From contig CM035351.1 of the NCBI GenBank assembly GCA_020137815.1, forward strand, positions 6,882,001 through 6,946,000: DNA of 64,000 nucleotides. The letters run 5' to 3'. The stretch is from Hormiphora californensis. Its lineage: Eukaryota > Animalia > Ctenophora. The notes beneath the pieces are model-generated. The model worked only from the letters and a program-made list of their open reading frames with translations. It was not told the DNA's origin and did no database searches. Positions 4,093-42,005 of this stretch are shown in pieces. The position numbers and the translations under genes were made by a program. Numbering within the stretch: the first letter of the stretch is position 1; the number at the start of each line of letters is the position of its first letter.

Positions 4093-4858
4093 GAGCGCGC
4101 ACAGACTGTTCATGCGTGATCATGTCCATAAGTGGGCAAGATGTTGATCAAGTCACGCAGACTGATCAAGCTTGATCATCTGATCAAGCTTGGACAGTAA
4201 AAACTGAAACTTCATATCAAAGCGAAAACTACTGTACCCGGCTAATTTTAATACTCTGAATCACGTAAGCTAGTTTTCAAATCCGTCAGAGGTCAGGAAA
4301 GTGTTCTAATTGGGCATTATTGGGTCTAATTGACCCCACTTAAAACTTGTCACCTGGAAATAATAGACGCTTATGTGAGGGCACTTTTCCGACTAATTTT
4401 GATACGCTGAATCACATAAACAACTTTTCCACGCCCCCAGAGGTCGGGAAAGTGTCCTAATTGAGTATAATTGGATCTAATTGACCTTAATTGCTCAATT
4501 AGAGTATTTCCTGACCTCTGGGGGCTCGGACAAGTTGCTTATATGATTCAGCGTATCAAAATTAGTCGGAAAAGTGCCCTCACGTCATTTCCAGGTGACA
4601 AGTTGTAAGTGGGGTCAATTAGACCCAATTATGCCCAATTAGGACACTTTCCCGACCTCTGAAGGATTTGAAAACTAGCTTACGTGATTCAGAGTATCAA
4701 AATTAGTCGGGTACAGTGGTTTTTGCTTTGATATGAATAAGTTTCAGTTTTTACTGTACAAGCTTGATCAGATGATCAAGCTTGAACAGTCTGCGTGACT
4801 TGATCAACATCTTGCCCACTTATGAACATGATCACGCATGAACAGTCTGTGCGCGCCC
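4093..4858. mobile_element. ~770-bp foldback (palindromic) MITE
   Basis: Arms G(A/G)GCGCGCACAGACTGTTCATGCG... and ...CGCATGAACAGTCTGTGCGCGCCC pair along almost the whole length, centre ~4480. Each arm has an internal sub-repeat. Confidence 0.9.
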
Positions 4859-9938: not shown

Positions 9939-10628
9939 GGGCACCGTTACGATCTGGGTAAGTATTTGGAGGCCTGTTTACAGGTGCACACTGCCAAAAA
10001 AGTACCATGTCTAAAACGGCTCTAACTGCCAAACCACTCAACCGATTTGGCTAATCCAAAGTTTATCTGATAGGAAATGTCAAGCCCTAAGTCCTAACCC
10101 CAACCCAAACCCCAGCCGGCAGCCCTAACCCTAACCCTACTTTAGCCCTAACCCTAAAAAACCGTGAGTGCTGACACTCCAAACACTGGGGCGAGACACA
10201 CTGAAGTTGGGCGCGCTCGTTCAAATCTCAACCTCGCGACACACACTGAAGTTCGAAGTTTCGCGAAAACCCATTTTCGGCTGAGAAATCATTTGTAAGT
10301 GGCTAACTTATTTACTGGTACATCTCTCGAGATGTCCTTTATCCATACCGAGTCAATTTCACCGTTTTAAAAGTTTTGGTGAATCGGGACAACTGTGACC
10401 GAATTAGCAAAAAAATTGTGAAACGGTGAAATTGACTCGGTATGGATAAAGGACACCTCGAGAGATGTACCAGTAAATAAGTTAGCCTCTTACAAATGAT
10501 TTCTCAGCCGAAAAAGGGTTTTCGCGAAACTTCGAACTTCGAACTTCAGTGTGTGTCGCGAGGTTGAGATTTGAACGAGCGCGCCCAACTTCAGTGTGTC
10601 TCCCCCCACTCAGATTTTAACGTTGGCC
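9939..10628 (+). mobile_element. Mutator-like MITE carrying (CCCTAA)n-like repeats, 9-bp TSD, interrupted by a nested foldback element
   Basis: Ends GGGCACCGTTACGATCTGGG...CAGATTTTAACGTTGGCC. TSD AGAAACC(C/A)T at 9930-9938 and 10629-10637. Confidence 0.8.
10188..10607. mobile_element. 420-bp near-perfect palindromic MITE (PIF/Harbinger-like: GGG ends, 3-bp TSD)
   Basis: GGGGCGAGACACACTGAAG...CTTCAGTGTGTCTCCCCCC with ACT duplicated on both sides. The host element sequence resumes exactly after it. Confidence 0.88.
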
Positions 10629-12722: not shown

Positions 12723-13471
12723 ATCTGGGTGCCTTGCAGTTGAAAAACAATGGAGTATACAGGTGCACGCTACCAAAAGAGTACACTTAGACCGACTTTT
12801 CTCAAACGGCTATAGCCACGCACCCACATGGCCAATTTGAGTAAACTAAACGGTATCTGTTAGAGAATCGATAGCCCTAACCGATAACCCCAAACCAAAC
12901 CCTAACCAGACCCTAACGGATAGCCCTAACCCGTCGCGCGCGCCAAAACTACGAATTGTTAGCAATGAAAGGCACCCAGATTTTAACGTTTTCCTGCCCG
13001 GTTTGGTGGCCAGCGTTAAAATCTGGGTGTTTTGGGAGTGCTGACAAACGGTTTTTTAAGGGTTAGGGCTAAAGTAGGGTTAGGGTTAGGGTTGGGGTTT
13101 GGGTTGGGGTTAGGCCTTGACATTCCCTACCATATAAACTTTGAATCAGCCAAAACGGTTGAGTGGTTTGGCGGTTAGAGCCATTTTAGTGAATCAACTT
13201 TTTTGGCAGCGCTCACCTGTAAACAGGCCTCCAAACACCCAGATCGTAACGGCGCCCCGGTTTGGTGGCCTGTTTTCTTGTTTTACAGGTGCGCGTTGCC
13301 AAAAAAGTTGATTCACTAAAATGGCTCTATCCGCCAAACCACTCAACCGTTTTGGCTAGTTCAAAGTTTATCTGGTAGAAAATGTCAAGGCCTAACCCTA
13401 ATCCTACTTTAGCCTTAACCCTAAAAACCGTTTGTCAGCACTCCCCAAACACCCAGATTTTAACGCTGGCC
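12722..13471. mobile_element. Cluster of three telomere-repeat-bearing Mutator-like MITEs: ~12722-12990 (+, diverged), 13008-13257 (-, complete), ~13267-13471 (+, partial)
   Basis: Homologous to the 9939 element. The 13008-13257 copy has a perfect 9-bp TSD CGGTTTGGT (12999-13007, 13258-13266). Confidence 0.85.
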
Positions 13472-13793
13472 AGAAATCAGGGCCCACGACCCAATGGCCA
13501 AAGAGCTAAAGCTATTTCAATGCTCGCTGCTCTACTAGGTTTCAAAATTCACGGAATTAAGTTTGGCAATTCTGCAAATTCGTTGCTGTCAGTGCTCGAA
13601 ACTTGCTCATACTGTCCACCTTTTCAATTGAGTTAGTTAATTTGGAGTACCGATTAACTTAATTCGTATTCCCTATTTGCACCGGTTACTCCGACTTTCC
13701 AAAAAATTCATTTGGATAATGGATTCTAAGATAATTCGAAAACTTTGTCCTTAATCTGGCATTGCTTAACAATAATATCACAGTATTTTTATA

Positions 13794-16373
13794 ATGGCTA
13801 TGAAAGTGAAGAAAAACCCATACGATTCAATCAAACCTCCTGAGATGTCTTTCGATGAAGAAGATGGTGAAACACCTATCAAGTAACTATAGGCCTTCAA
13901 AATGGGCCTAGATTGTTTACAAGTTTACAATGTTGACTATGATAAAATATTTGCCAGGAGTTTGCCTCAAACTAAAGATATTTGGGAGTTGTGTATTCAA
14001 GCCACTGAACGGGCAAATCAAGCAGCAGCAAAAAGAAGTGATCAAACAGGTAAACTAGGCTAACAACAATTAGAGTTTTTTTTCATCAAATATCGTTTGT
14101 TGTTCAGGTGCTTCATTTTTGCGTCCATCGCTCATTTTCCCGGGTATGTTTGATGTCGTCTTGTTTGAAGCTGTTTTCTTGACCTTCCTTTTTGTTTATA
14201 GAGTGACTTCTGCACGGCTGTTTTCTGAGTGTTAATTATTTCAGGAGTTGTTGTTGAAAACCAGAACAAGTCATCCGAACGAACAATTTTTGTTGTCGGG
14301 GCAAAATCCTCCGGAAAAACTGGTATCATCCTACGATTTCTTGATAGGTAAGCCGTGAATTTACATCGCTCTGACTGTGGATCTTGTGGATAACTATTTT
14401 TCACCTATCACCAATTTTCCTTGCTCGACCCTGTTTCACCGTGCCCCAGATTAATCAAAACAATCTCCCATCTCTACAGGGACGAACAGCCCAAGGCTAC
14501 AACGGCACTGGAGTACACATTTGGAAGGCGATCACGGAATGACAGTATGAGTAAGGATGTTGCCCATGTCTACGAGTTGGGTGGAGGAGTGGCACTCTCA
14601 AATCTCATAGAGATACCTGTTACTAAGGAGTGTGTCCAGACACTGAACTTTGTTATTGTAGTGGACCTCAGCAAACCAGAAACTATCTGGACTACACTTG
14701 AGTCCCTGCTGGCCGCAATTAGACAGAGGGTGAAGAAGGTTATACACGAACTAAAAGTAGACTCTCCCAGGTAAGATGATAATGGCTGATCGAGTAGATG
14801 TTCTCAACACGTCGTATATTCACACACATCATATATTGACACATCCCCCCAGTGCGGCCAATAACCTAGTCGCGGAATGTCTGGCAAGGTATGATGCTGA
14901 CCATCCTGACAAAGACTCCCTGGATATCATACCAGTGCCCATCACCATCATAGGATCTAAATACGATGTCTTCCAGAACTTTGACAGTGAGAAGAAGAAG
15001 ATAATATCCCGGACATTGAGATATGTGGCACACCATCATGGGGCTCATCTCTGTGTAAGAATTACACATTTCTCTCATCATATATAATCGGGCTAATTGT
15101 TATCTCAAATCACCCAATTTAATGTTATGTTTTCTAATGGTTTTCTCTCTCTCTATTCATCACTAATTGTACTTATCACCCCCTGCCAGTACTTTAGCTC
15201 CAAGATCGAGACGTTGGTTATGCGAGCCAGGGGGTTGTTAGGACATCTCGTGTTCAAGACACAGCTCAACAAGACAACATCAACTGACCACAATAAACCC
15301 ATTTACATGCTGGCTGGTATGGATGCTGTCAGTCAAATCGGATCACCCCCTCCTGCCCCTGGATCTAGGTACAATATACCCCCTCCTGCCCCTGGATCTA
15401 GGTACAATATACCCCCTCCTGCCCCTGGATCTAGGTACAATATACCCCCTCCTGCCCCTGGATCTAGGTACAATATACCCCCTCCTGCCCCTGGATCTAG
15501 GTACAATATACCCCCTCCTGCCACTGGATCTAGGTACAATATACCCCCTCCTGCCCCTGGATCTAGGTACAATATACCCCCTCCTGCCCCTGGATCTAGG
15601 TACAATATACCCCCTCCTGCCCCTGGATCTAGGTACAATATACCCCCTCCTGCCCCTGGATCTAGGTACAATATACCCCCTCCTGCCCCTGGATCTAGGT
15701 ACAATATACCCCCTCCTGCCCCTGGATCTAGGTACAATATACCCCTCCTGCCCCTGGATCTAGGTACAATATACCCCCTCCTGCCCCTGGATCTAGGTAC
15801 AATATACCCCCTCCTGCCCCTGGATCTAGGTACAATATACCCCCTCCTGCCCCTGGATCTAGGTACATCACATGTTATATCACACATAACAATCACACTC
15901 ACATCAATATTTGTTTCTCTCAGCAACCTCTCACACTACCTCTCACACACGCATGGAGGGGACCCATTTGGTACGGACATGGACAGGTAATACACATGTA
16001 TCATCACTAGTTTTCACGTGTATAATAACGGTGCCCACTCCCCTGCAGGTCTCTGTTAGAGCAGTGGAAACAACTGTTCCTGTCATCATTCCCCCAAGAA
16101 TCGGAAGCGGCCATGCCAGATGACCCAACCAAAGATAAGAAGTACAACGAGCCCATAGTGGATTCTGTCCGCGTCCAGAAAGATGAGGTTTGTTTGTTTG
16201 TGGTTGCTGTAAATACACATTACACATCATGTTAGAAAAAACTGTAAACATACGAACGTGATAATGTTGATAACTTGATGTCCTGATTATTTAAAGTCGT
16301 GCTATTTTAGGAGCTGGAACGATTCCGGAAAGCTCAGGAAAGGAAAATGAGACAGAGTGCAGCTCAACAGTAG
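13794..16373 (+). CDS. DYNC2LI1: Cytoplasmic dynein-2 light intermediate chain 1 (retrograde IFT)
   Basis: DIWELCIQA; P-loop [41 protein letters not shown]; [12 protein letters not shown]; [29 protein letters not shown]; [30 protein letters not shown]. Multi-exon GT-AG. Confidence 0.93.
15346..15866 (+). repeat. 33-bp tandem repeat x16 spanning a DYNC2LI1 exon/intron junction
   Basis: Unit CCCCCTCCTGCCCCTGGATCTAG|GTACAATATA. The first 12 copies are in frame ([11 protein letters not shown]). Confidence 0.97.
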
Positions 16374-16608
16374 CTTCTTGTTTATTTCTGCTGGATCAGA
16401 GATATATAAAAGGAATTCTAACTTCAGATATTTGTGTATAAAGTGTGTTTAGATGAACTCTATACAATTTATTTTAATACAGAGACAGATGTAAATTGTA
16501 TATAATAGCTTATTTATTTTCCTGTGTTAAAACACTCTAATTATGTCAAGTGCCAACTATCTCAAATGAATCTGACCCTGTCTATTCCTATCTAGCTCCC
16601 ATCTAGCC

Positions 16609-19600
16609 ATGTTGTCCCTTCTCTCCAGAACCCCCTCTATCCTCCGTGCGGGATGTAGCAGTGTCCGCTTCCTAAGCGGGGATGTGAACAGTCGTTTCAC
16701 CGCCGCCCAGGAGCGTCTTAACACCATCAAAGAAGACCCTGGAAACGCTGCTAAACTGAAGATATACGGGCTCTTTAAACAGGCTAATGTCGGTCCCTGT
16801 AACATTCCTAAACCAGGGGGTTTCAACTTTGTTGCCAAGGCTAAATACGATTCCTGGAAGGGGCTTGGTGACATGACAAGTGATGAAGCAAAGGAGGCGT
16901 ATATTGCCTTTGTAGATGAACTAGCTGGACCTGAGGAGGGAGCTGCAGGTGGTGTGGAGGAGGCTGCACCAGTGGGCGAGGGAGTGCCTGGACTGGATGT
17001 GACAAAGGAGGGAGGAGTCCTGACAATCACACTAAACAGACCTGACAAGTTCAACGCTCTTACCTGGCAGGTAGCTGATACTTAGCTAACATTAGGTATC
17101 ACTCCCTAGACCCCTCTAGCCCCCACCCCTCCCACCCCTAGACCCCCTCTAGCTCCCACCCCTCCCACCGGGCTCCCACCCCTAGACCCGCTCTAGCTCC
17201 CACCCCTCTCGACAGTCGACACATAGACCCCTCTAGCCCCCACCGGGGGGGTTCCAACCTATTTTTTGTATGTTTGTACGGAAAAAAACAGGGGTTTCCT
17301 CAAACAAAAAAATACAAAAAAATACAAAAAAATAAAAACAATTTTATAAGGTAATTTACCATTCTTGTTCGAACTTTTACTGTTTTTAAACATTCTTCCA
17401 CGCTATTTTACGCAATTTAGCACAAATTATATACATATTTTACATATGTAGCATGCCAAAATCGCGAGAGAAATTTTCCCGAATCGCAATTTCTTACCAA
17501 TACAAGAAAACTTTCTCGAATCGTAATTTCGAACCAAGAAATTTTTCTCGAATCGAAATTTGTAAGCGAGAAAGTTTTCCCGAATCGCAATTTCTTACCG
17601 AGAAAACTTTCTCGAATCGTAATTTCGAACCAAGAAATTTTTCTCGAATCGAAATTTGTAAGCGAGAAAGTTTTCCCGAATCGCAATTTCTTACCGAGAA
17701 TACTTTCTCGAATCGTAATTTTGAACCAAGAAATTTTTCGCGAATCGAAATTTGTAAGCGAGAAAATTTTCCCGAATCGCAATTTCTTACCGGGAAAATT
17801 TTCTCGAATCGTAATTTCGAACCAAGAAGTTTTTCTCGAATCGACATATTTTCTAAGCGAGAAAATTTTCCGAATCGCAATTTCTTAGCGAAAAATTTTC
17901 TCGAATCGTAATTTCGAACCAAGAATTTTTCCTCGAATCGAAATTTGTAAGCGAGAAAATTTTCCCGAATCGCAATTTCTTACCGAGAAAACTTTCTCGA
18001 ATCGTAATTTTGAACCAAGAAATTTTTCGCGAATCGAAATTTGTAAGCGAGAGAATTTTCCCGAATCGCAATTTCTTACCGGGGGAATTTTCTCGAGTCG
18101 TGATTTCGAACCGAGAAGTTTTTCTCAAATCGGCATATATTCTAAGCGAGAGAATTTTCCGAATCGCAATTTCTTAGCGAAAAATTTTCTCGAATCGTAA
18201 TTTTGAACCAAGAATTTTTTTTCTCGAATCGACATTTCTAAGCGAGAAAATTTTTCCGAATCGCAATTTCTTAGCGAAAATTTTTCTCGAATCGTAATTT
18301 CAAACCAAGAATTTTTATCGAATCGACATTTCTAAGCGAGAAAATTTTTCCGAATTTTCTCGGATTGCAATTTCTTATTGAGAAAATTACCTCCAATCGC
18401 AATTTCTTGCCTTGTTCGACCCTCCCTCCCCGCGCCCCGGTTTGAACAAAACAAGCAATTTCTTACTGTCTGACGCCGCCGACCCGATCTGAGAATCAAA
18501 TTGGGGTATGGGCGCCGCCATACAGATTTCTTAGGGAAAAAATTATCTCGAATGACGAATGGCAATTTCTTACCGAGAAAGTTTCTCGAATCGTAACTTC
18601 CAACCGAGAAAATTTTCTCGAATCGTTATCTGAATCAATCATGTTTGCTTTTCCGAATTTCAAGAACGTGTAATTTCTCATATGTACATATAATGTAACA
18701 CTTTTAAGGAATAAAATGCGTGACAATGGAACTAAAAATGTTCCTAGGTGGTACATGGTCACAAAAGGAACCCGTCGATGTATTATTTACACGTTTATCA
18801 AGCACCCATATATCAGTACATATTTTGTATTTTTTTGTATTTTTTTGTATTGTTTGTACGGAAAAAAAAACAAGAATTTTGGATATTTTTTTGTATGGCC
18901 CGTACAAAAACATACAAAAAAATAGGTTGGAACCCCCCCCCCCCCCCCTCTAGTTCCCACCCCTCCCCACACATAGACCCCTCTAGCCCCCCACCTTTCC
19001 CACATCTAGACCCCTCTAGCTCCCACCCCTCTAGCTCCCACCCCTCCCACCCCTAGACCCTCTCTAGCTCCCACCCCTCTCGACACATAGACCCCTCTAG
19101 CCCCCACCCCTCCCACCCCTAGATCCCCTCTAGCCCCCACCTTTCCCACCCCTAGACCCCCTCTAGCCCCCACACCTCCCCACATCTAGACCCCTCTAGC
19201 CCCCACCTTTCCCACACCTAGACCCCTCTAGCCCCCACCCCTCTCGACACATAGACCCCTCTAGCCCCCACCCCTCTCGACACATAGACCCCTCTAGCCC
19301 CCACCCCTCTCGACACATAGACCCCTCTAGCCCCCACCCCTCCCCACATCTAGACCCCTCTAGCCCCACACCTTTCCCACCAGATGTACAAGGGTATTGG
19401 TGAGACCTTGACAGCAGCAGCTAACGACTCCAGTGTGCGTGTAGCCGTCCTGACAGGTACTGGCAAGTGGTATTGTGCGGGCAATGATCTGTCCAACTTT
19501 ACCAAGGACATGCCTGCTGGGGGTCCAACCGAGATGGCAGATAACGGACGTGATGTTCTAGAGTAAGTAACACCTTAAATAATACACTAGAATACACCTT

Positions 19601-20511
19601 AAATAACAGTACATTAAAATGCAATTAAGTATCGGTGGAAGTAACGTCTTTCCTGGTAAAACAGGGAGCTATTATAAGGGTTTGGATATATCAGTCATAT
19701 TATAATCACAGTCTCTTCCCCATTATCAGTGTGTTCTGCGCGGCTATGATCAACTTCCCGAAGCCCCTGATCGCGGCAGTTAACGGCCCTGCCATTGGTA
19801 TTCCTGTAACCACGCTGGGGCTCTGTGATATCGTCTACTGTACTGATAGTGCCCACTTTAGGACACCTTTCGTTAGTCTGGGACAGTCCCCTGAGGGCTG
19901 CTCTAGCTACGTTTTCCCCAGGACATTTGGGTTTGCAAAGGTACTTATGACGTCATTGTCTAATTATAGTACATCCATCACCCACTAAATCACTGAACAG
20001 GCCCTGTACTTTACTATTTTCTCATTTACCTGCTTGAGAGCTAACCGGTACACTAACAGGCCAACGAGATGTTGTTGGCTGAGAGGCAGATCTCTGCAGA
20101 GGAGGCATGTGCAGGTGGACTTGTCACTAGGGTCTTCCCTGAGGAGTCCTTCCGGGATGAGGTCAACAAGGTCGTATCACACATGGCACAACTGCCACCC
20201 CAGGTACACAACTACCACCACAGGTACTACCCTGTTAGATAATACTGTTAGAACAGCCAAAGCAAATGGAAAGTCGACTCGGATAAATCTAGATGTCGAT
20301 ATATTACCCAACCCTAATCTGACCCCGACTGCATCTAATCACCCCTCTCCCCTTGTAGTCCATGATAATTAGCAAGGGGCTCATCCGACAAGAGCTGAAA
20401 GAGAAGCTGCTGGAGGTGAACACTAGGGAATGTGCCACACTTCGTGATAGATGGCTGAGTGACGAGTGTATGACTGCCATCATGAACTTCCTTAACCGAA
20501 AGAAGAAATAG
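16609..20511 (+). CDS. ECI2: Enoyl-CoA delta isomerase 2 (ACBP + crotonase domains), mitochondrial presequence; 5 exons
   Basis: ACB domain [22 protein letters not shown]...[11 protein letters not shown]; [13 protein letters not shown]; WYCAGNDL; [16 protein letters not shown]; [11 protein letters not shown]; ends NFLNRKKK*. Confidence 0.95.
17105..19383. repeat. C-rich minisatellite (CCCCACCCCTAGACCCCTCTAGC-like) in ECI2 intron 1, split by an inserted element
   Basis: The same unit occurs at 17105-17244 and 18949-19383. Confidence 0.9.
17245..18948. mobile_element. ~1.7-kb non-autonomous TIR element carrying a 96-bp (3x32) higher-order tandem array
   Basis: TIRs GGGGGGGTTCCAACCTATTTTTTGTATGTTT / AAACATACAAAAAAATAGGTTGGAACCCCCCC. 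Array at ~17455-18630. Confidence 0.85.
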
Positions 20512-20687
20512 AGACAGCAGTTAAACAGAGAGACACCTGTGTAGTATCTACACTCCAAGTTTTTGAAGTGATTTTGTGTTATACGTTCATGTTTTCAAAT
20601 TATTCTGTAAAGTTACCCCTCTCGTTGTCACCACTACCAACTAGCTAATAGTAAGAGCCTGATCTCCTATCTAGCCCCCATCTAGCC

Positions 20688-21011
20688 ATGTTGTCTCTTC
20701 TCTCCAGAACCCCCTCTATCCTCCGTGCGGGATGTGGCAGTGTCCGCTTCCTAAGCGGGGATGTGAACAGTCGTTTCACCGCCGCCCAGGAGCGTCTCAA
20801 CACTATCAAAGAAGACCCTGGAAACGCTGCTAAACTGAAGATATACGGGCTCTTTAAACAGGCTAATGTCGGTCCCTGTAACATTCCTAAACCAGGGGGT
20901 TTCAACTTTGTTGCCAAGGCTAAATACGATTCCTGGAAGGGGCTTGGTGACATGACAAGTGATGAAGCAAAGGAGGCGTACATTGCCTTTGTAGATGAAC
21001 TAGCTGCATAA
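20688..21011 (+). CDS. Stand-alone acyl-CoA-binding protein with mitochondrial presequence (partial duplicate of ECI2 exon 1)
   Basis: 107-aa ORF nearly identical to ECI2 aa 1-106. It stops right at the end of the ACB domain and keeps the upstream acceptor context. Confidence 0.75.
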   Translation: MLSLLSRTPSILRAGCGSVRFLSGDVNSRFTAAQERLNTIKEDPGNAAKLKIYGLFKQANVGPCNIPKPGGFNFVAKAKYDSWKGLGDMTSDEAKEAYIAFVDELAA

Positions 21012-21228
21012 ATGTCAAACAGGGAAACATTGTGGGTGTGTAGAATCTACACTGTATTGTTTTGTGATTTTGTGTAATTTATTCTGTGTTTCTTTAATGT
21101 TTTTAATTAACATTTTAATTTGTTACTAATAATTGATCTCTCTTCATCATGTTTATTATTCAACCCTCTAAATGATAATCTCCCCTCCCTAGCGCTATAC
21201 AGTCCATGATTTTGTCCCTTTGCCTGGT

Positions 21229-21528
21229 ATGGCAGTAAGGGGTGCATACGCCTTTGGAGCATTCTGTACAACGTTCTTTATTGGGTTTACTGGTTACGTG
21301 TGGTATACAGAGCGATCAGACAGGAAGAAGCTGAAGGACGGTGCAGCTCGTGACATCAACGAATACCAGAGAAAGTTGGCAATTCGCCTAAAGAAGGAGC
21401 AAGACAACAAAGGTGTGTGTGATGAATATGAGTTTTCAAAAAAGTTGTCTGTCGAGGTGACTTCAGTTAATTTTGTATTAACTAATTATTCATCTCTCTT
21501 TTCAGATGGCCCGAAAACGTCAAGCTAA
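21229..21528 (+). CDS. PET117: Cytochrome c oxidase assembly factor PET117-like
   Basis: MAVRGAYAFGAFCTTFFIGFTGYVWYTERSDRKKLKDGAARDINEYQRK: TM helix plus a D..RL..G..RD motif. Probable 93-nt intron 21413-21505; last exon DGPKTSS*. Confidence 0.75.
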   Translation: MAVRGAYAFGAFCTTFFIGFTGYVWYTERSDRKKLKDGAARDINEYQRKLAIRLKKEQDNKGVCDEYEFSKKLSVEVTSVNFVLTNYSSLFSDGPKTSS

Positions 21529-23836
21529 TTTGGAACGTTTCGCCGGGTCAATAGCTGATCTTGTTGGCGGTGCAAAGAAGAAGAACAGGGCCGGTCAAAA
21601 GATCGGAAAACCCAAATTCCAGCTCGACAGAAAACGGAAACGGAAAGAGGAAAAGGAGGCTAGAAAGGAGAGGAAACTGAAACACATTTTAGTTAGAGCA
21701 GGAGCAGTCCTCCCTGAGGAGAGTAACCCTGAAGTTGAAACTGCTGATCAGCCCAAGAAGAAAAAGGTGAAGAAGGAGAAGTTTGTAGCAGGACGGGACA
21801 CCCTCACTTCTCTACAATCAAAGCAGGAGAAAATCTATAAAGCTGCAGAATCTTATACACGACTCACCAAGGAGGAAGCGGATATCGCTAATAAGAAAGA
21901 GGACAAGAACATCAAGGAATTGGAGAAACGATTAGGAATCCGGAAAAACCAGAAAACTCCTAAATCGTTCACTGAGGATGGCCTAAATTATGTTCTTGAT
22001 TTTGAGAAGAAGAAGGACAGTGTAGAAGAAAAGGAAGAGGAGAAGGAAGCTGGGGATGAGGAAGCTGGGGATGAAGCTGTTGAAGGGCTATTTGAAGACC
22101 TTGAATCTGACACTGATAACGACTCTGATGGGTTCTTCCCCTCAGAAGGGGAAGAAGAGGGGGAGGAAGAGGAAGAAGAGGAGGAAGAGGAGGATCAGAT
22201 TGGGGAGTTTGGTGTTGATGAGACCATGGGAGAGAGCGAGATAGAGGACGAAGAAACGAGCGAAGAAGAAGAAGATATGGAAGGACTCGAGGAGGATCCA
22301 GGAGAAAGTGAAGAAAGTGAATCAGGGAACAAAACAGAAGAGAAAGAGGAGGTAAAAGCAGCTCCCACCTCCTACGTTCCCCCTCACCTACGGAATCTAG
22401 ACGCCTCATCCCTCCTATCCCGCAGAATCCGGGGCTATGTTAACAGGGTATCTACCTCCAACATCAAGCAGATCCTGACAGATGTAGAGCTGGTGTACCA
22501 AGATCACCCCCGGGGTGAAGTTAACTCTACAATCCTAACCAGGATCAGCGAGTCATGTCTCATTTCTACGGTCATGCCAGCGAGGCTGTGTGCTGAGCAC
22601 ATGCTGCTCGTTGCCTGCCTCTCCGCTAATATCGGGGCAGAGTTTGTTAGCCCGCTACTCGAGGAGTTGGCGGGCAAGTTTAGATCTGAGCTGGGAACAG
22701 ATCGTCGTGGTGGTAAGGTTCTCAACAACATTGTCTCTATGGTATGTTTCATGTACTCCCTCAAAGTTGTATCATGTGTCCTTGTGTTTGATATCATCCG
22801 TGCCCTACTGGGATCCTTCACCGAGCCAGATCTAGAGGTACTCCTCTATATCTTCAAGTCAGTGGGTGTGGACATCAGGAAGGATGACCCTCAGGCCCTG
22901 AAGGATATCGTAAACATTGTCAATGAGAAGGGATCCAAACTAAAAGAAAAGAGCTCTAGGTTCACGTGGTTTGTGGACACTCTGACTGCGGTTAAAAACA
23001 ACAATGTCAACAAAATACCAAACTATGATAAATCTGATATAGTGGATATCCAGAAGGCGTTCAAGGCGACTGTCAAGGCCAATCCACCGAATCTCCAGGT
23101 CACCTTGGCTGATCTCCAAGATGCGGCAACGAAAGGGCGCTGGTGGGTTGTCGGTGCTGCCTGGACGGGTACTGAGGAGGGGAGTGAGAGGAGTAAAAAG
23201 ACATCAAATATCGGCAGTTTTGACAGTAAACTCCTGGCCCTTGCCAAGAAGAATCACATGAACACGGAGGTCAGGAGGAACGTGTTTTGTGTCCTCATGT
23301 CATCTGAGGACTTTGAGCACTGTTTTGAGCAGCTAATGAAACTCAACCTGAAGGATAAACAGGAGAGGGAGATTATCCATGTGGCGGTGTTGTGTGCACT
23401 AAAATGTAAAACATACAACCCCTACTACACCAGCGTGATCGGAAAGTTCTGTGGGTTTAGTAAGAACTTCCAAGTGACCACCCAGTTCTCTCTATGGGAC
23501 AGGTTAAAGGAGCTACAGTCCCTCTCCCCAGCCAAACTCTCCAATCTGACCAAGTTGTTGGCAGCCCTCATTACCTCCAAAACCATCTCTCTGGCAGTGC
23601 TAAAGGTGGTGAACTTTGCTGAAATCGGGACTGATGATGTGACATTTTTTAAGGATCTCTTTACAGCTCTCCTCTCCAATTCTGAGGGTGTTGTGACGGA
23701 GATCTTCGGGCGGGTTCAACCCCTCCCCCTTGATAACTTGAAAAATGGTATGAAAGTGTTTATGAAGCACTTCCTGAAACCAGATTTAACGGGAAGTGAA
23801 CTGAAAAATATGAAAATCGCCTTGAAATGCTTTTAA
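21506..23836 (+). CDS. NOM1: Nucleolar MIF4G/MA3 domain protein 1 (Sgd1), intronless, 776 aa
   Basis: Basic/acidic N-terminus, YVPPHLR, MIF4G, KGRWWVVGAAW, MNTEVRRNVFCVLMSSEDF (MA3). Confidence 0.93.
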   Translation: MARKRQANLERFAGSIADLVGGAKKKNRAGQKIGKPKFQLDRKRKRKEEKEARKERKLKHILVRAGAVLPEESNPEVETADQPKKKKVKKEKFVAGRDTLTSLQSKQEKIYKAAESYTRLTKEEADIANKKEDKNIKELEKRLGIRKNQKTPKSFTEDGLNYVLDFEKKKDSVEEKEEEKEAGDEEAGDEAVEGLFEDLESDTDNDSDGFFPSEGEEEGEEEEEEEEEEDQIGEFGVDETMGESEIEDEETSEEEEDMEGLEEDPGESEESESGNKTEEKEEVKAAPTSYVPPHLRNLDASSLLSRRIRGYVNRVSTSNIKQILTDVELVYQDHPRGEVNSTILTRISESCLISTVMPARLCAEHMLLVACLSANIGAEFVSPLLEELAGKFRSELGTDRRGGKVLNNIVSMVCFMYSLKVVSCVLVFDIIRALLGSFTEPDLEVLLYIFKSVGVDIRKDDPQALKDIVNIVNEKGSKLKEKSSRFTWFVDTLTAVKNNNVNKIPNYDKSDIVDIQKAFKATVKANPPNLQVTLADLQDAATKGRWWVVGAAWTGTEEGSERSKKTSNIGSFDSKLLALAKKNHMNTEVRRNVFCVLMSSEDFEHCFEQLMKLNLKDKQEREIIHVAVLCALKCKTYNPYYTSVIGKFCGFSKNFQVTTQFSLWDRLKELQSLSPAKLSNLTKLLAALITSKTISLAVLKVVNFAEIGTDDVTFFKDLFTALLSNSEGVVTEIFGRVQPLPLDNLKNGMKVFMKHFLKPDLTGSELKNMKIALKCF

Positions 23837-35937: not shown

Positions 35938-38900
35938 ATGTCTCTGATTGGTTGGTTGTAGCGTGGCAGCATTCCTCCGACGTCTAGCAAAATCACCAGC
36001 AGGATTCTCTAGAATCCCATTGATAGTAAGGATGAGTGGCACTAATGTTAGCGGGCTAGCACACTGGAATGTACTGTTTAATGATAACACTCAGCGGATA
36101 TGTAAGGAGTTCGGAGATCACGGTGAGTAACTAGGAAGGGTATACTATAAACTATTATCGAGATACTGCAGTGAGTAGCCCTGCCCCTAGCTAGCAAGGA
36201 TGTAGTATTGAAAGCACTAAGTATCCAGATAGTGAAAGTGTTTTCTCAGCTGATAATCGAGAGATAGTGTGATAACCACCTTTGTTAAGATTGTGTGTGT
36301 GCCTTGGTTCTGCTAAGATTTATTGTATGTTTGTCATAACTGTATATATTCGTTGTACCAAAACCATGTATAGCACCTAGCAACCTCCCAGGTTACGAGG
36401 TCCGTATTGTTGGTGGAGCGGTGAGGGATCTCCTCCGTGGTGTGGCCCCTAAAGATGTTGACATGGCAACCAACGCAACTCCTGACCAAATAGTGGAGGT
36501 GTGCAAGGGAGCAGAGATTAAACACATCCTTACAGGTGATTATCTAGGGGGGGGGGGGGCATTTGGAGTCCTTGCTATTGAGTCACCTTGAGCTCAGAGC
36601 CATTGATAGTAGTAGACATTACTTCAGAGTTCAGGGGGATATCACTGAGTTTCCAATGTCATATCATGGAATGAAAAAGAACCAAATGATATGTATGACC
36701 GACTATCTCTCTCCACTCCTAGGTTTCGAGCACGGTACGGTAACACTGATGTTGGATGGGACCCCCTACGAAGTAACTACCCTACGGGTTGATAAGGAGA
36801 CCGATGGTAGGCACGCCAAGGTGGAATACACTACCGATTTTGAGGCGGATGCTGCTCGACGAGATCTGACAAGTATAGTAGGGACGAATCTCTTATAAAA
36901 AGAAGTGGCTGACTCACTATTTGGTGGAAAGCAAATTCCGGTTGTAACCCACCTATTTTGACCCGCTGAACACGATCCCGTTCATAGGTAAGGTCGCAAA
37001 AGTGAAGAACATGCCCAAATCGGCCACGCCCTTTTACCTGTATTTTCAGCCTGTAGCCAAAAACATAAATCCTCTTAGAATAGGATTAGAGACAAATCTG
37101 AGGGCACTAAAGTGATCAGCGCCCTCGCATTAGTGGGGGTAGGTGCTGGAATTAAGTCTCTATCTCATCTGGTTAATTAGATAATTGGATAATTAGGTTT
37201 GCGCATAACCGTTTTTTGGCTATATGGCTATAGCCACTTAGGAATGGTTTAGAGACTTTTCACTGGCGCCAATTTATAGGCAATAGCCACGTTATGGGGG
37301 GTCGACGTCGGACTTTTAAGCTCTATCTCCAACCGTTTAGCCGTTATTGGGCTTAATCGGTGCTCAAAATGAGCGAAAAACGGTAAAAAGCCCGATTTTG
37401 AGCATCGTTTAAGCCAAATAACGGCTAAACGGTTGGAGATAGAGCTTAAAAGTCCGACGTCGACCCCCCATAACTTGGCTATTGCCTGCAAAATGGCGCC
37501 AGTGAAAAGTCTCTAAACCATTCCTAAGTGGCTATAGCCATATGGCCAAAAACGGCTATGCGCGGATCTAATTATCCAATTATCTAATTAACCAGATGAG
37601 ATAGAGACTTAATTCCAGCACCTACCCCCACTAATGCGAGGGCGCTGATCACTTTAGTGCCCTCAGATTTGTCTCTAATCCTATTCTAAGAGGATTTATG
37701 TTTTTGGCTACAGGCTGAAAATACAGGTAAAAGGGCGTGGCCGATTTGGGCATGTTCTTCACTTTTGCGACCTTACCTATGAACGGGATCGTGTTCAGCG
37801 GGTCAAAATAGGTGGGTTACAACCGGAATTTGCTTTCCACCAAATAGTGAGTCACAAAATTAAGATTCGTCCCTACTAAGTAAGACACAGCTTGCAATAC
37901 TTCACTATTTTGTGGGGTTCGGGGTTCACAATTGCGGTATCGGTACACAGCTAGGACATGGGGTTCGGACACACTTCACACAGAATACACGTGAGAGTTA
38001 TCGAGATTCTATAGGACTAAGGAGGGTTAGACAAACTCGTTTACACCTACTACCCTTTAGTTAACGCTATGAGTGTGCGTATTGATGGAACCCTGTTTGA
38101 CTACTTTGAGGGGAGATGCCACCTGGAGGAGAGACGGGTACTGTTTGTTGGTGAACCTGCTGAGCGAATCAAAGAGGATTACCTTCGCATTTTGAGGTAC
38201 ATCATAGTTGTTTCATAGAAGTGTATGGTAGAAGGGACACGAGCCACATAATGGGCGTGTTCAACTATGTAACACGTCTTGCAACAACTCCAACCTACGT
38301 GGTCCTATTATCTAGCAGTAGGCAGGTGCCAGGTATGATATACCACCCCATGTTGTCAGCCTCATGGAAAACAACAGGAGGAGAGGTCTAAAGTAGAACA
38401 CATACCTGCTCCCCCCCCCCACATACCTAAACAGTGTCTGTTGAGAGACACTAAATCTTGGCACTTGGTGAAGGGGGGGGGGCAACGGACCCTCTTGGTG
38501 AAAGGGGGGTGGTATTATTTCAGGTTCTACCTAACTAACATGTCCCCCCACGCCCCCAGGTATTTCAGGTTCTACGGCCGTATCTCCCAGAAAGATGACG
38601 AGTTTGATGAGAAAACGATTGAAGCCATCAAACTACACAAGGATGGCCTCAAAAAGATCTCCAGAGAGCGAATTTGGTTGGAAATGAAGCAGGTTGTGGT
38701 GGGAAGGTTCGCGGAGACCATCCTCACCAAGATGAAGGATCTGGACCTGTTTTATCTGATCAACCTGAAACACACCTTCCGTATTGACACCCTGTGTAAA
38801 CAACACAGTTTAGCAGACCTTGATGTCATCCAGCCCGTCACCATGTTGAGTTACGCATTCGATCACCATGGTGATTTCACCAAACTCCGCCGTGACTGGA

Positions 38901-39571: not shown

Positions 39572-42005
39572 ATGGTGAAAGTTGAAGAAACAGTCAGTCC
39601 TCTAAAGCAGAAGACCCTTGATGGGCTGCTGAAGAAGAGTCCTGAGCCTTCTGAGAAATGTCCCGACAAGGCAGTACCGGTGAAGAGAGAGCCCCTGCAG
39701 ACCACAACCCAGAAACAGGAGGTGAAGAAGGAAGGGAAACCGACCAGGAATCAGCCTACAAAGGAGAAAAAGCAGGCCAAGGAAAATAAATCATCAACAA
39801 AAGGTAACAACGTGTTTTGTAACTAATATTTAGGTTACTATACTGGTACAGTCGGACCCCGATTTAGTGGCCCCCGATTTAGTGGTACCCCGATTTAGTG
39901 GCAGGATTTTTTCCCCGCGATATAGGAAATTAACATTATTTGAACCCGATTTAGTGGCACCCCGATTTAGTGGCAGGATTTTTTCCCCGAGGATGCCACT
40001 AAATCGGGGTCCGACTGTATATGATTATTGATTCTTGGATTAAAATTCCTCAGGTACTGCAGTAAAGAAAACAGAGAAGACCCGGCCAAAGAGACAGATA
40101 AAAGCAGCTACCGAGGAAAAAGATGACTTCAGGTACTAATTTTGTGAGTAATTAGTAGAAAATGTGCCGGTGAGTTTTCCAAATTAGCCCCAAATATCAG
40201 TTTAAAGAGAGTCTGGGGATCGCAGTAAATCACTGGGTGAGAGTGTAAAACACTGATTACTCAGAGCATATCTCATGTTTCACATTCTCCTACTGTTGTT
40301 GTTTGTGATGTAAATGTCTTGTAGCAGAGGATCACTTGAATGATCTCCGGTTTGGCCACTTCTATCTTTCTGTCTACCCAACTGAAAGGAACTGTCAACC
40401 TGTTAAAGTAAGAGTGGCGCGCCGTGTTTTCTCACAAAACTTAGTGGATGAACGGGGAGTACCACCAGGACCATTGGTACGGTATCGAAAATTTCCAATT
40501 CTGTCTCGTTCATTAGTTATGACGTAATATGTTCATTATTTCAACTTTCATAAAATTGCTCTACAGAAATATCTGTGCATTGTGGATTGAAATGGATGCT
40601 CGCATCGTGTTCAGCGTCAAAAAATAGTCGGGGTACCAAATTTTGGTGTCTCTACCTTGTCTGTGACGCGAGATATCGACAATTATCAAAAACGACCAAA
40701 ATGGGTGAGAGAGAGATTGTTACTTTTGGGTGCTAGTTGTTTGTGCGCGCCACCCAAAAGTAACAAACTCTCTTTCTCTCACTTTGGTCGTTTTTTCATA
40801 TTTGTCAATATCTCGCGTCACAGACAAGGTAGAGACACCAAAATTAGGTACCCCGACTATTTTTTGACGCTGAACACGATGCAAGCATCCATTTCAATCC
40901 ACAATGCACAGATTTTTCTGTAGAGCAATTTTATGAAAGTTGAAATAATGAACATATTACGTCATAACTAATGAACGAGACAGAATTGGAAATTTTCGAT
41001 ACCATACCAATGGTCCTGGTGGTACTCCCCGTTCATCCACTAAGTTTTGTGAGAAAACACGGCGCGCCACTCTTACTTTAACCGTAGCAACAACACGTTC
41101 ACTCATGGGTCTAATAATAAGTGGCTTCGATCGGTCAGGTGTGTTAGCAAGGAAGGTTATTATTGGGGATTGACCATCGTGTACATTGTATAACGTCTCT
41201 CTTCCCAGGAAGTTGTCTGATTTCTACCCGGTCCGGAGAAGTAAACGTCAGCCCATTTCCAAACTAAAAGATCAAGAAACCCAACAGTTGAGGGAGAAGA
41301 TTGAGAACAAATGTCATGAGGGTCTAGAGGTAACTATAATATCACAGTGTACCAATGTGATAGAAGTGTGGCTCTTTCAATTTACTGTTTTTTTAGTCAT
41401 TAGTAGTTCACTAGTCGTTACAAATGAGGCCCACAGTCTGTACCCCAAATTAACCTCCCTATCTTCACCGCAGATCCGGGAGATACCCGGAAAAGGAAGG
41501 GGTGTCTTCTCAAACAGACACTTCAATAGAAAAGAGTTTGTAGTTGAATACTCTGGGACCCTGATCTCATTCGAGGAAGCAAAACGGAGGGAAGCGGAAT
41601 ATGCTGAGCACCCTGATAAGTTTGGGTGTTACATGTACTACTTTTCATTCAAGAATAAAAAATACTGGTGAGTTCCATTTTTCACATCTTTCTCTCTCTC
41701 TCTCTCTCTCTCTTCATATCATATATACCCTTTGAAGAGGGCCCCCAGTCCCCACCAACCAGTACTTAACACCCCCTCCCTCCTCCTTGCAGTGTGGACG
41801 GTACGGCGGAGGACTGGCAGCTATGGTCGGCTTCTTGAACCACTCAGTAAATGGTAACGTGGAGACCAAGTTGGTGGATGTTAACAGTAAACCAGTGCTA
41901 ATTCTCATTGCTAAAACTGATATCCCACCTGATACTGAACTATGTTATGATTATGGGGAGAGAAGTAAGGATATTATTGATTCACATCCATGGCTAACCA
42001 GCTAA
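39572..42005 (+). CDS. KMT5A: H4K20 monomethyltransferase SETD8/PR-Set7 (apparent frameshift errors in the last exon)
   Basis: KLSDFYPVRRSKR (PIP-degron-like), GKGRGVF, EFVVEYSG, GCYMYYF, NHSVNGN, ELCYDYGERSKDIIDSHPWL. Confidence 0.93.
39849..40017. mobile_element. Tc1/mariner-pogo-type MITE, TA TSD
   Basis: TA-CAGTCGGACCCCGATTTAGTGG...CCACTAAATCGGGGTCCGACTG-TA with internal CCCGATTTAGTGG repeats. Confidence 0.9.
40407..41077. mobile_element. 671-bp palindromic MITE, TTAA TSD, AG...CT ends (Kolobok-like)
   Basis: TTAA-AGTAAGAGTGGCGCGCC...GGCGCGCCACTCTTACT-TTAA. Full-length arms, centre ~40742. Confidence 0.9.

Follow-up and report, generated by a model that had tools for sequence, protein, structure and literature searches.

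Animal bicistronic mRNAs that encode a small protein upstream of a longer one are the closest described systems. In these mRNAs the small upstream protein is often mitochondrial, according to the available part of a recent survey, and half of the human downstream ORFs are intronless, which is an enrichment (PMC13303939). In fly dicistrons the stop-to-start distances go down to -34 nt, so short overlaps are known (PMC4528330). In the KSHV ORF35-ORF36 transcript ORF36 is driven by reinitiation, through a uORF of 11 codons that overlaps the start of ORF35 (PMC3561293), and the accessible text of a green-algal study gives scarcity of upstream AUGs before ORF2 as a mark of scanning bicistrons in algae and fly (PMC11892635).

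Spliced leaders are widespread in ctenophores; in Hormiphora, at least 56% of the long reads carry one (PMC8527503). As far as its accessible text goes, a 2021 methods paper describes operons and polycistronic mRNAs as unreported in ctenophores (PMC7986045), and a literature search whose coverage lacked the bulk of the subscription literature and the 2010 paper on ctenophore leaders returned nothing on the PET117-NOM1 pair or on ctenophore bicistrons. Here we analyse a 64,000-nt stretch of the Hormiphora californensis genome (the window), in which PET117 and NOM1 form a conserved overlapping bicistron. PET117 is a small mitochondrial assembly factor for complex IV, and NOM1 acts in ribosome biogenesis. 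On balance we think that the two genes, which overlap by 23 nt on one spliced RNA, are probably both translated from a leader-capped bicistronic mRNA by scanning ribosomes.

Gene structure and neighbourhood of PET117 and NOM1

The first coding exon of PET117 occupies 21229..21412 on the + strand (61 codons and one base) and has no ATG in any frame past its start. It is followed by a phase-1 GT-AG intron of 93 nt (21413..21505, + strand) with the donor AAAG/GTGTGT at 21413, a branch-like ACTAAT at 21481-21486 and a pyrimidine tract with TTTCAG ending at 21505. The NOM1 ATG lies directly after this AG, at 21506, and NOM1 runs as one uninterrupted ORF of 776 amino acids to 23836 on the + strand. 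Splicing gives PET117 the tail (D)GPKTSS-stop, which is read out of frame with NOM1 codons 1-8 in a dual-coding overlap of 23 nt (21506..21528, + strand); its stop TAA, ending at 21528, is formed by the NOM1 codons Ala7-Asn8. As PET117 has no stop before 21505, there is no intercistronic region and no PET117 3' end upstream of the acceptor. On all of these points, i.e. the splice signals including the branch-like motif, the NOM1 start abutting the AG, the out-of-frame tail DGPKTSS and the lack of room for a PET117 3' end before NOM1, the initial annotation is borne out by the sequence. No AATAAA or ATTAAA occurs from PET117 to the end of NOM1; none is found after ECI2 either, so this is uninformative.

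A Pfam profile search finds MIF4G and MA3 domains in NOM1, a nucleolar protein. Where the two align, NOM1 shares 99% identity with a protein of Pleurobrachia bachei; with other proteins of ctenophore type, among them entries from Mnemiopsis and Bolinopsis, it shares 61-67%, so that the window belongs to a Pleurobrachia-type comb jelly. The window PET117 matches Pfam PF15786 with an E-value of 2.7e-5 and 24.6-24.7 bits, under the curated cut-off of 27. The family is matched by all five PET117 sequences, one of which (the relative P0090, 35.7 bits) scores above the cut-off. NOM1 was called whole on contigs of 22 kb to 1.4 Mb from other ctenophores, where it is seemingly intronless too, in contrast to the genes next to it. 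Vertebrate NOM1 is a multi-exon gene. An old retroposition possibly placed an intronless NOM1 behind PET117, and the acceptor at 21505 may be what is left of a leader site that once belonged to NOM1 and was captured by PET117.

The PET117 intron contains the only two ATGs between the PET117 and NOM1 starts in the window (21422 and 21428). The initial annotation had also drawn attention to its being stop-free in the PET117 frame. It is indeed open, but this is not special: 8,759 of 100,000 shuffles of the intron (8.8%) are stop-free as well, and the relative P0001 (90% identical) ends in KGM two residues past the donor position, which we read as an unspliced frame that stops inside the intron. 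The open frame is therefore due to chance and carries no weight, and a functional retained isoform is ruled out on the same grounds.

The gene order on the + strand is a dynein light intermediate chain gene, an ECI2-like gene, a stand-alone ACBP copy, PET117 and NOM1. The first of these gives a weak DLIC match and is presumably DYNC2LI1. The ECI2-like gene (ACBP and enoyl-CoA isomerase; 16609-20511, + strand) has four introns, and the stand-alone ACBP ORF of 107 amino acids (20688-21011, + strand) lies between it and PET117. The segment 20665-21006 is a 342-bp copy, 98% identical, of 16586-16927, i.e. of the first ECI2 exon together with the acceptor upstream of it, and may reflect either a very recent partial duplication or an assembly artefact. 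Contigs mapped onto the ACBP copy run on into ECI2; the copy is also the source of a contig joint that 'goes back 1626', for which exon scrambling or a circular RNA was ruled out. From about 14100 to 23836 five ORFs lie on one strand. The stop-to-ATG distances are short (some 175-235 nt in the first four), pyrimidine-AG sites are found shortly 5' of the ATGs, and this cluster appears operon-like. Candidate leader acceptors of ECI2 are found 2 and 13 nt before its ATG.

Elsewhere in the window, long near-perfect palindromes of up to 947 bp and 96% (4095-4856, 10187-10608, 12996-13483, 36910-37854 and 40402-41082), together with tandem arrays in introns and spacers such as the 33-bp units at 15345-15867, are likely foldback or MITE-like elements.

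The joined transcript and conservation of the overlap

Contigs of four (X1-X4) of the 11 listed runs were mapped to the window. In a 339-nt contig, X1 record 2, the segment 21248-21412 is joined to 21506-21679; the 93 nt left out have GT..AG ends, and the contig reaches 174 nt into NOM1. This was seen in one contig of one of the four runs; X1, which was taken as RNA by guess, is without three of the ECI2 introns as well. The PET117 intron is spliced out, and the RNA continues into NOM1. The cis-splicing of the PET117 donor to the AG before the NOM1 ATG, which had been predicted from the sequence, is supported by X1 record 2 with the junction 21412^21506 in this single contig. A bicistronic mRNA, mentioned in the initial annotation as a bracketed alternative, gains support from X1 record 2 and from the contig L001 described below. 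X1 record 2 is the only listed contig of the four runs that covers 21506. These are contigs and not single molecules, none of them shows a poly(A) end, and a contig over two genes is no proof of one molecule; NOM1 stretches without contig cover in the four runs carry no evidential weight.

The same arrangement is present in L001, a 1,852-nt contig whose PET117 and NOM1 are 44% and 50% identical to those of the window. PET117 (38-256) and NOM1 (243 to the contig end, 536 codons, 1.6 kb) have the same relative frame as in the window and overlap by 14 nt, compared with 23 nt in the window. The 5' end of L001 consists of 30 nt that are G-free until the final AATTGAG and resembles, when compared by eye, the published ctenophore leader motif AATTTGAG (PMC8527503). 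This leader-like end directly abuts the start of a uORF, ahead of PET117. L001 was treated as RNA solely because of its 5' end, and is best read as a leader-capped RNA that spans the whole of PET117 and 1.6 kb or more of NOM1. A quick tree places it within the ctenophore clade (support 100) and outside a group of the window, the lobates and P0005/P0008 (SH-aLRT 91), its position not being separated from that of P0010. Because this distant sequence keeps the same-frame overlap and branches outside the window and the lobates, the overlap would predate the split between these lineages.

Further evidence comes from PET117 proteins. P0002 (68 amino acids, 83% to the group of P0001) ends in DGPKTTS, and P0090 (71 amino acids, with an N-terminus shared with the Mnemiopsis model) ends in NGAEETS. 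Of six ctenophore NOM1 starts tested, three (for P0002) and four (for P0090) could encode the seven-residue tail with its stop in the shifted frame; among 20,000 random tails, two fitted the shifted NOM1 frame with a stop at the same place. The tails of P0001 and P0087 do not fit the six tested starts, in P0087 because its own NOM1 start differs. Judging from protein sequence, PET117 and NOM1 would overlap in the species of P0002 and P0090 as well.

In Mnemiopsis the annotation fuses the PET117 N-terminus to that of NOM1 and splits NOM1 in two (P0088 and P0009). The model ACHWQZ_G012410 (P0088) has 38 PET117 residues fused to the NOM1 start and adjoins G012411 (P0009), the C-terminal part of NOM1, so that the adjacency of PET117 and NOM1 is kept. 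A PET117-NOM1 fusion protein was rejected, as P0088 replaces the conserved second half of PET117 by eight unrelated residues and the two frames differ in both DNAs; we read P0088 as a mis-model of two overlapping genes. The initial annotation had left conservation of the overlap to a comparison with relatives, and it is kept there, as seen in the L001 DNA, the P0002 and P0090 tails and the Mnemiopsis adjacency. This conservation argues that the overlap is beyond chance.

Deep-branching ctenophore-type NOM1 proteins (P0010, P0085) are without the conserved start QANLERFAGS, and their lineage may have lost the overlap. L002 (a 13-residue match), P0086 and P0089 were discarded as chance matches. 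Searches with the NOM1 N-terminus in genome_contigs and with P0090 in viral_contigs gave no match, nor did an Rfam search of the window and L001.

Possible routes to the translation of NOM1

A uORF of 10 codons (21206..21238, + strand) begins before and ends after the PET117 ATG, out of the PET117 frame and in the NOM1 frame. Its counterpart in L001 has nine codons (L001:33-62) and is also in the NOM1 frame, so that both DNAs have a uORF over the PET117 start, ending 174 nt (window) and 180 nt (L001) before the NOM1 ATG. Shuffled leaders yield such a uORF at 0.05-0.09 for the window and 0.015 for L001, a post hoc comparison with n = 2. The uORF is a putative element for bypassing the PET117 start. 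We infer that it is part of the mature mRNA in the window, for which candidate spliced-leader acceptors lie at 21180..21202 on the + strand (CTCCCCTCCCTAG ending at 21192 and TACAG ending at 21202), a segment with no read cover. The uORF start context in L001, AGCC-ATG-T, is the same as that of the real ECI2 start, and that in the window is weaker, with T at -3. Start contexts were judged by the general Kozak rule, which is not a ctenophore consensus. In both DNAs the PET117 ATG is flanked by G at -3 and at +4, and the NOM1 ATG by A at -3 and by G at +4. The weak ORF1 context that is a trait of leaky-type bicistrons is thus absent. Because the PET117 context is strong in both DNAs, plain leakage past PET117 would be less likely than bypass through the uORF.

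The spliced stretch from PET117 to NOM1 has no ATG between the two starts in either DNA, and the four complete PET117 proteins (window, P0002, P0087, P0090) have no internal Met. Under NOM1 codon use, the chance of finding no out-of-frame ATG is P = 0.042 for the window and P = 0.006 for L001. ATG-forming NAT+G junctions are found in 0 of 9 cases in PET117; the figure for NOM1 is 48 of 59 (p = 3e-6), and that for ECI2 is 9 of 19. PET117 favours C-ending codons even without a following G (T in 2 of 12 cases versus 62 of 142 in NOM1, p = 0.12), comparison of G with non-G contexts within PET117 gives p = 0.49, and CpG is less depleted at the 5' ends (o/e 0.85 and 0.71). ATG-free segments of equal length account for 291 of 2,144 (14%) in the window NOM1 and for 1% in the L001 NOM1. 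Avoidance of ATG in PET117 is suggestive, being confounded by codon and CpG bias.

Co-translation of PET117 and NOM1 from one mRNA is likely. Ribosomes starting at the PET117 ATG would make PET117 and stop inside NOM1, and those starting at the 9-10-codon uORF, or leaking past both starts, would bypass the PET117 ATG, scan the ATG-free PET117 and initiate at the NOM1 ATG as the first one met. Removal of the intron would take away its two ATGs and leave the NOM1 ATG first for the scanning ribosomes. No splice junction follows the PET117 stop codon, so junction-dependent decay should spare the RNA. A minor leader-NOM1 form made from the same AG may coexist. The signs of scanning, i.e. the ATG-free stretch, the uORF and the intronless NOM1, are post hoc and suggestive.

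Acceptors shared by cis- and trans-splicing are a possible alternative, of which the 'alternative operons' of C. elegans are a further case. The initial annotation had proposed a switch in which the AG at 21505 joins either the PET117 donor, giving a PET117 mRNA with NOM1 untranslated, or the leader, giving a NOM1 mRNA, the two being mutually exclusive. Leaders are common in ctenophores, as seen in the Hormiphora long reads (PMC8527503), the acceptor abuts the NOM1 ATG where a leader acceptor is expected (0-3 nt before an ATG), the PET117 start context is strong, and in the available part of a flatworm study leader acceptors are also cis-spliced in 20-95% (PMC12582326). N-terminal over-calls of NOM1 (NFQ-M in P0005/P0077 and SSFQK-M in P0007/P0081/P0083) would, from protein only, be in keeping with a TTYCAG located 0-3 nt 5' of the NOM1 start codon; in Mnemiopsis the corresponding stretch is purine-rich and may be exonic sequence. 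However, no leader-NOM1 sequence was found in searches of little power: the loose ends listed for the four runs include none at 21506 and none with a leader joined to NOM1, at a site that a single contig spans and where leader tips, being short, were likely pruned from contigs, and a pattern scan for the NOM1 start in metagenome_contigs gave 0 matches with low power. A search for leader genes in the window gave no match to two 3'-end motifs and three matches to a looser 8-mer. The sole leader-bearing contig, L001, has the leader ahead of PET117, cis-splicing in the available flatworm data is lowest at operon-resolving acceptors (PMC12582326), and the switch leaves the ATG-free PET117 and the uORF unexplained, neither of which would be required with trans-spliced RNA as the sole source of NOM1. 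We consider the switch unlikely.

Two transcript starts would give a similar outcome if an upstream promoter produced a PET117 mRNA with NOM1 as a passenger 3' region and an internal promoter in PET117 or its intron produced a leader-NOM1 mRNA, with the uORF and the ATG scarcity due to chance. At 114 of 159 Drosophila dicistronic loci monocistronic mRNAs are also made, often via a downstream promoter (PMC4528330), and in urochordates, by the available account, alternative promoters feed cis- or trans-splicing at one acceptor (PMC12582326); the confounded ATG-scarcity test would also leave room for this explanation. The promoter would, however, have to fit into under 300 nt that are for the most part coding, the uORF is present in both DNAs, and no transcript start inside PET117 was seen in the four runs, which have little power; this arrangement seems quite improbable to us. 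Calicivirus stop-start sites use termination-reinitiation, with TGGGA as the TURBS core. Ribosomes that end PET117 inside NOM1 could in the same way step back to the NOM1 ATG, which would suit the short conserved overlap (23 and 14 nt) with a stop near the next start. A TURBS-like motif was looked for and is absent, as neither PET117 (window, L001) has a TGGGA; moreover the stop lies 11-20 nt past the NOM1 ATG and is shifted between lineages, and an ATG-free 5' part of PET117 would not be needed. Such coupling is very unlikely to apply here.

Our preferred reading is therefore still scanning on a leader-capped bicistronic mRNA. A bolder extension of it, which we regard as doubtful, would be that ctenophores have kept since their early radiation a leader-capped mRNA whose uORF routes ribosomes past PET117 to NOM1 in a herpesvirus-like bypass, with splicing licensing NOM1 by removal of decoy AUGs and the same acceptor also taking the leader. 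This would be a three-way switch tying mitochondrial respiration to ribosome supply.

Comparison with known bicistrons and operons

Whether leaders and scanning compete or coexist can be tested on a conserved mRNA for two proteins such as this one, from an animal lineage that branched off very early and could resolve it by trans-splicing. The overlap also accounts for an annotation error, the fusion of PET117 and NOM1 in Mnemiopsis ACHWQZ_G012410.

The locus resembles the animal bicistrons STREMI-SLC35A4, MIURF-MIEF1, PYURF-PIGY as well as ASDURF-ASNSD1, as far as the accessible survey describes them (PMC13303939), and the Drosophila dicistrons (PMC4528330) in having a small conserved upstream protein and an unrelated long intronless downstream ORF. 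It carries the pattern in which a small mitochondrial protein is encoded upstream of a gene without introns far past vertebrates and insects. It differs from these in the gene pair and the phylum, in being leader-capped in an animal that can use trans-splicing to resolve operons, and in that the last exon of PET117 is made of the first codons of NOM1.

With KSHV ORF35-ORF36 (PMC3561293) it shares a short uORF over the start of the first ORF (11 codons there, 9-10 here) and partly overlapping ORFs. The viral case is proven by mutation, whereas ours is cellular, spliced and inferred from two sequences, and there is no homology between the two. Scarcity of AUGs before ORF2 and a strong ORF2 context are common to PET117-NOM1 and the leaky-scanning bicistrons of green algae, in what is available of that study (PMC11892635), but there the ORF1 context is weak, while it is strong here, and here the ORFs overlap.

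Finally, the spliced-leader systems of flatworms (PMC12582326) and of Hydra RFC140-flp (PMC3273482) are, in the parts of these reports at hand, similar in the use of leaders, the tight same-strand cluster and an acceptor abutting the ATG. In contrast to operons resolved by spliced leaders, as far as those sources describe them, the processed RNA seen here still contains two genes. Because no intercistronic region separates PET117 from NOM1, the pair is not a classical operon resolved by a spliced leader.
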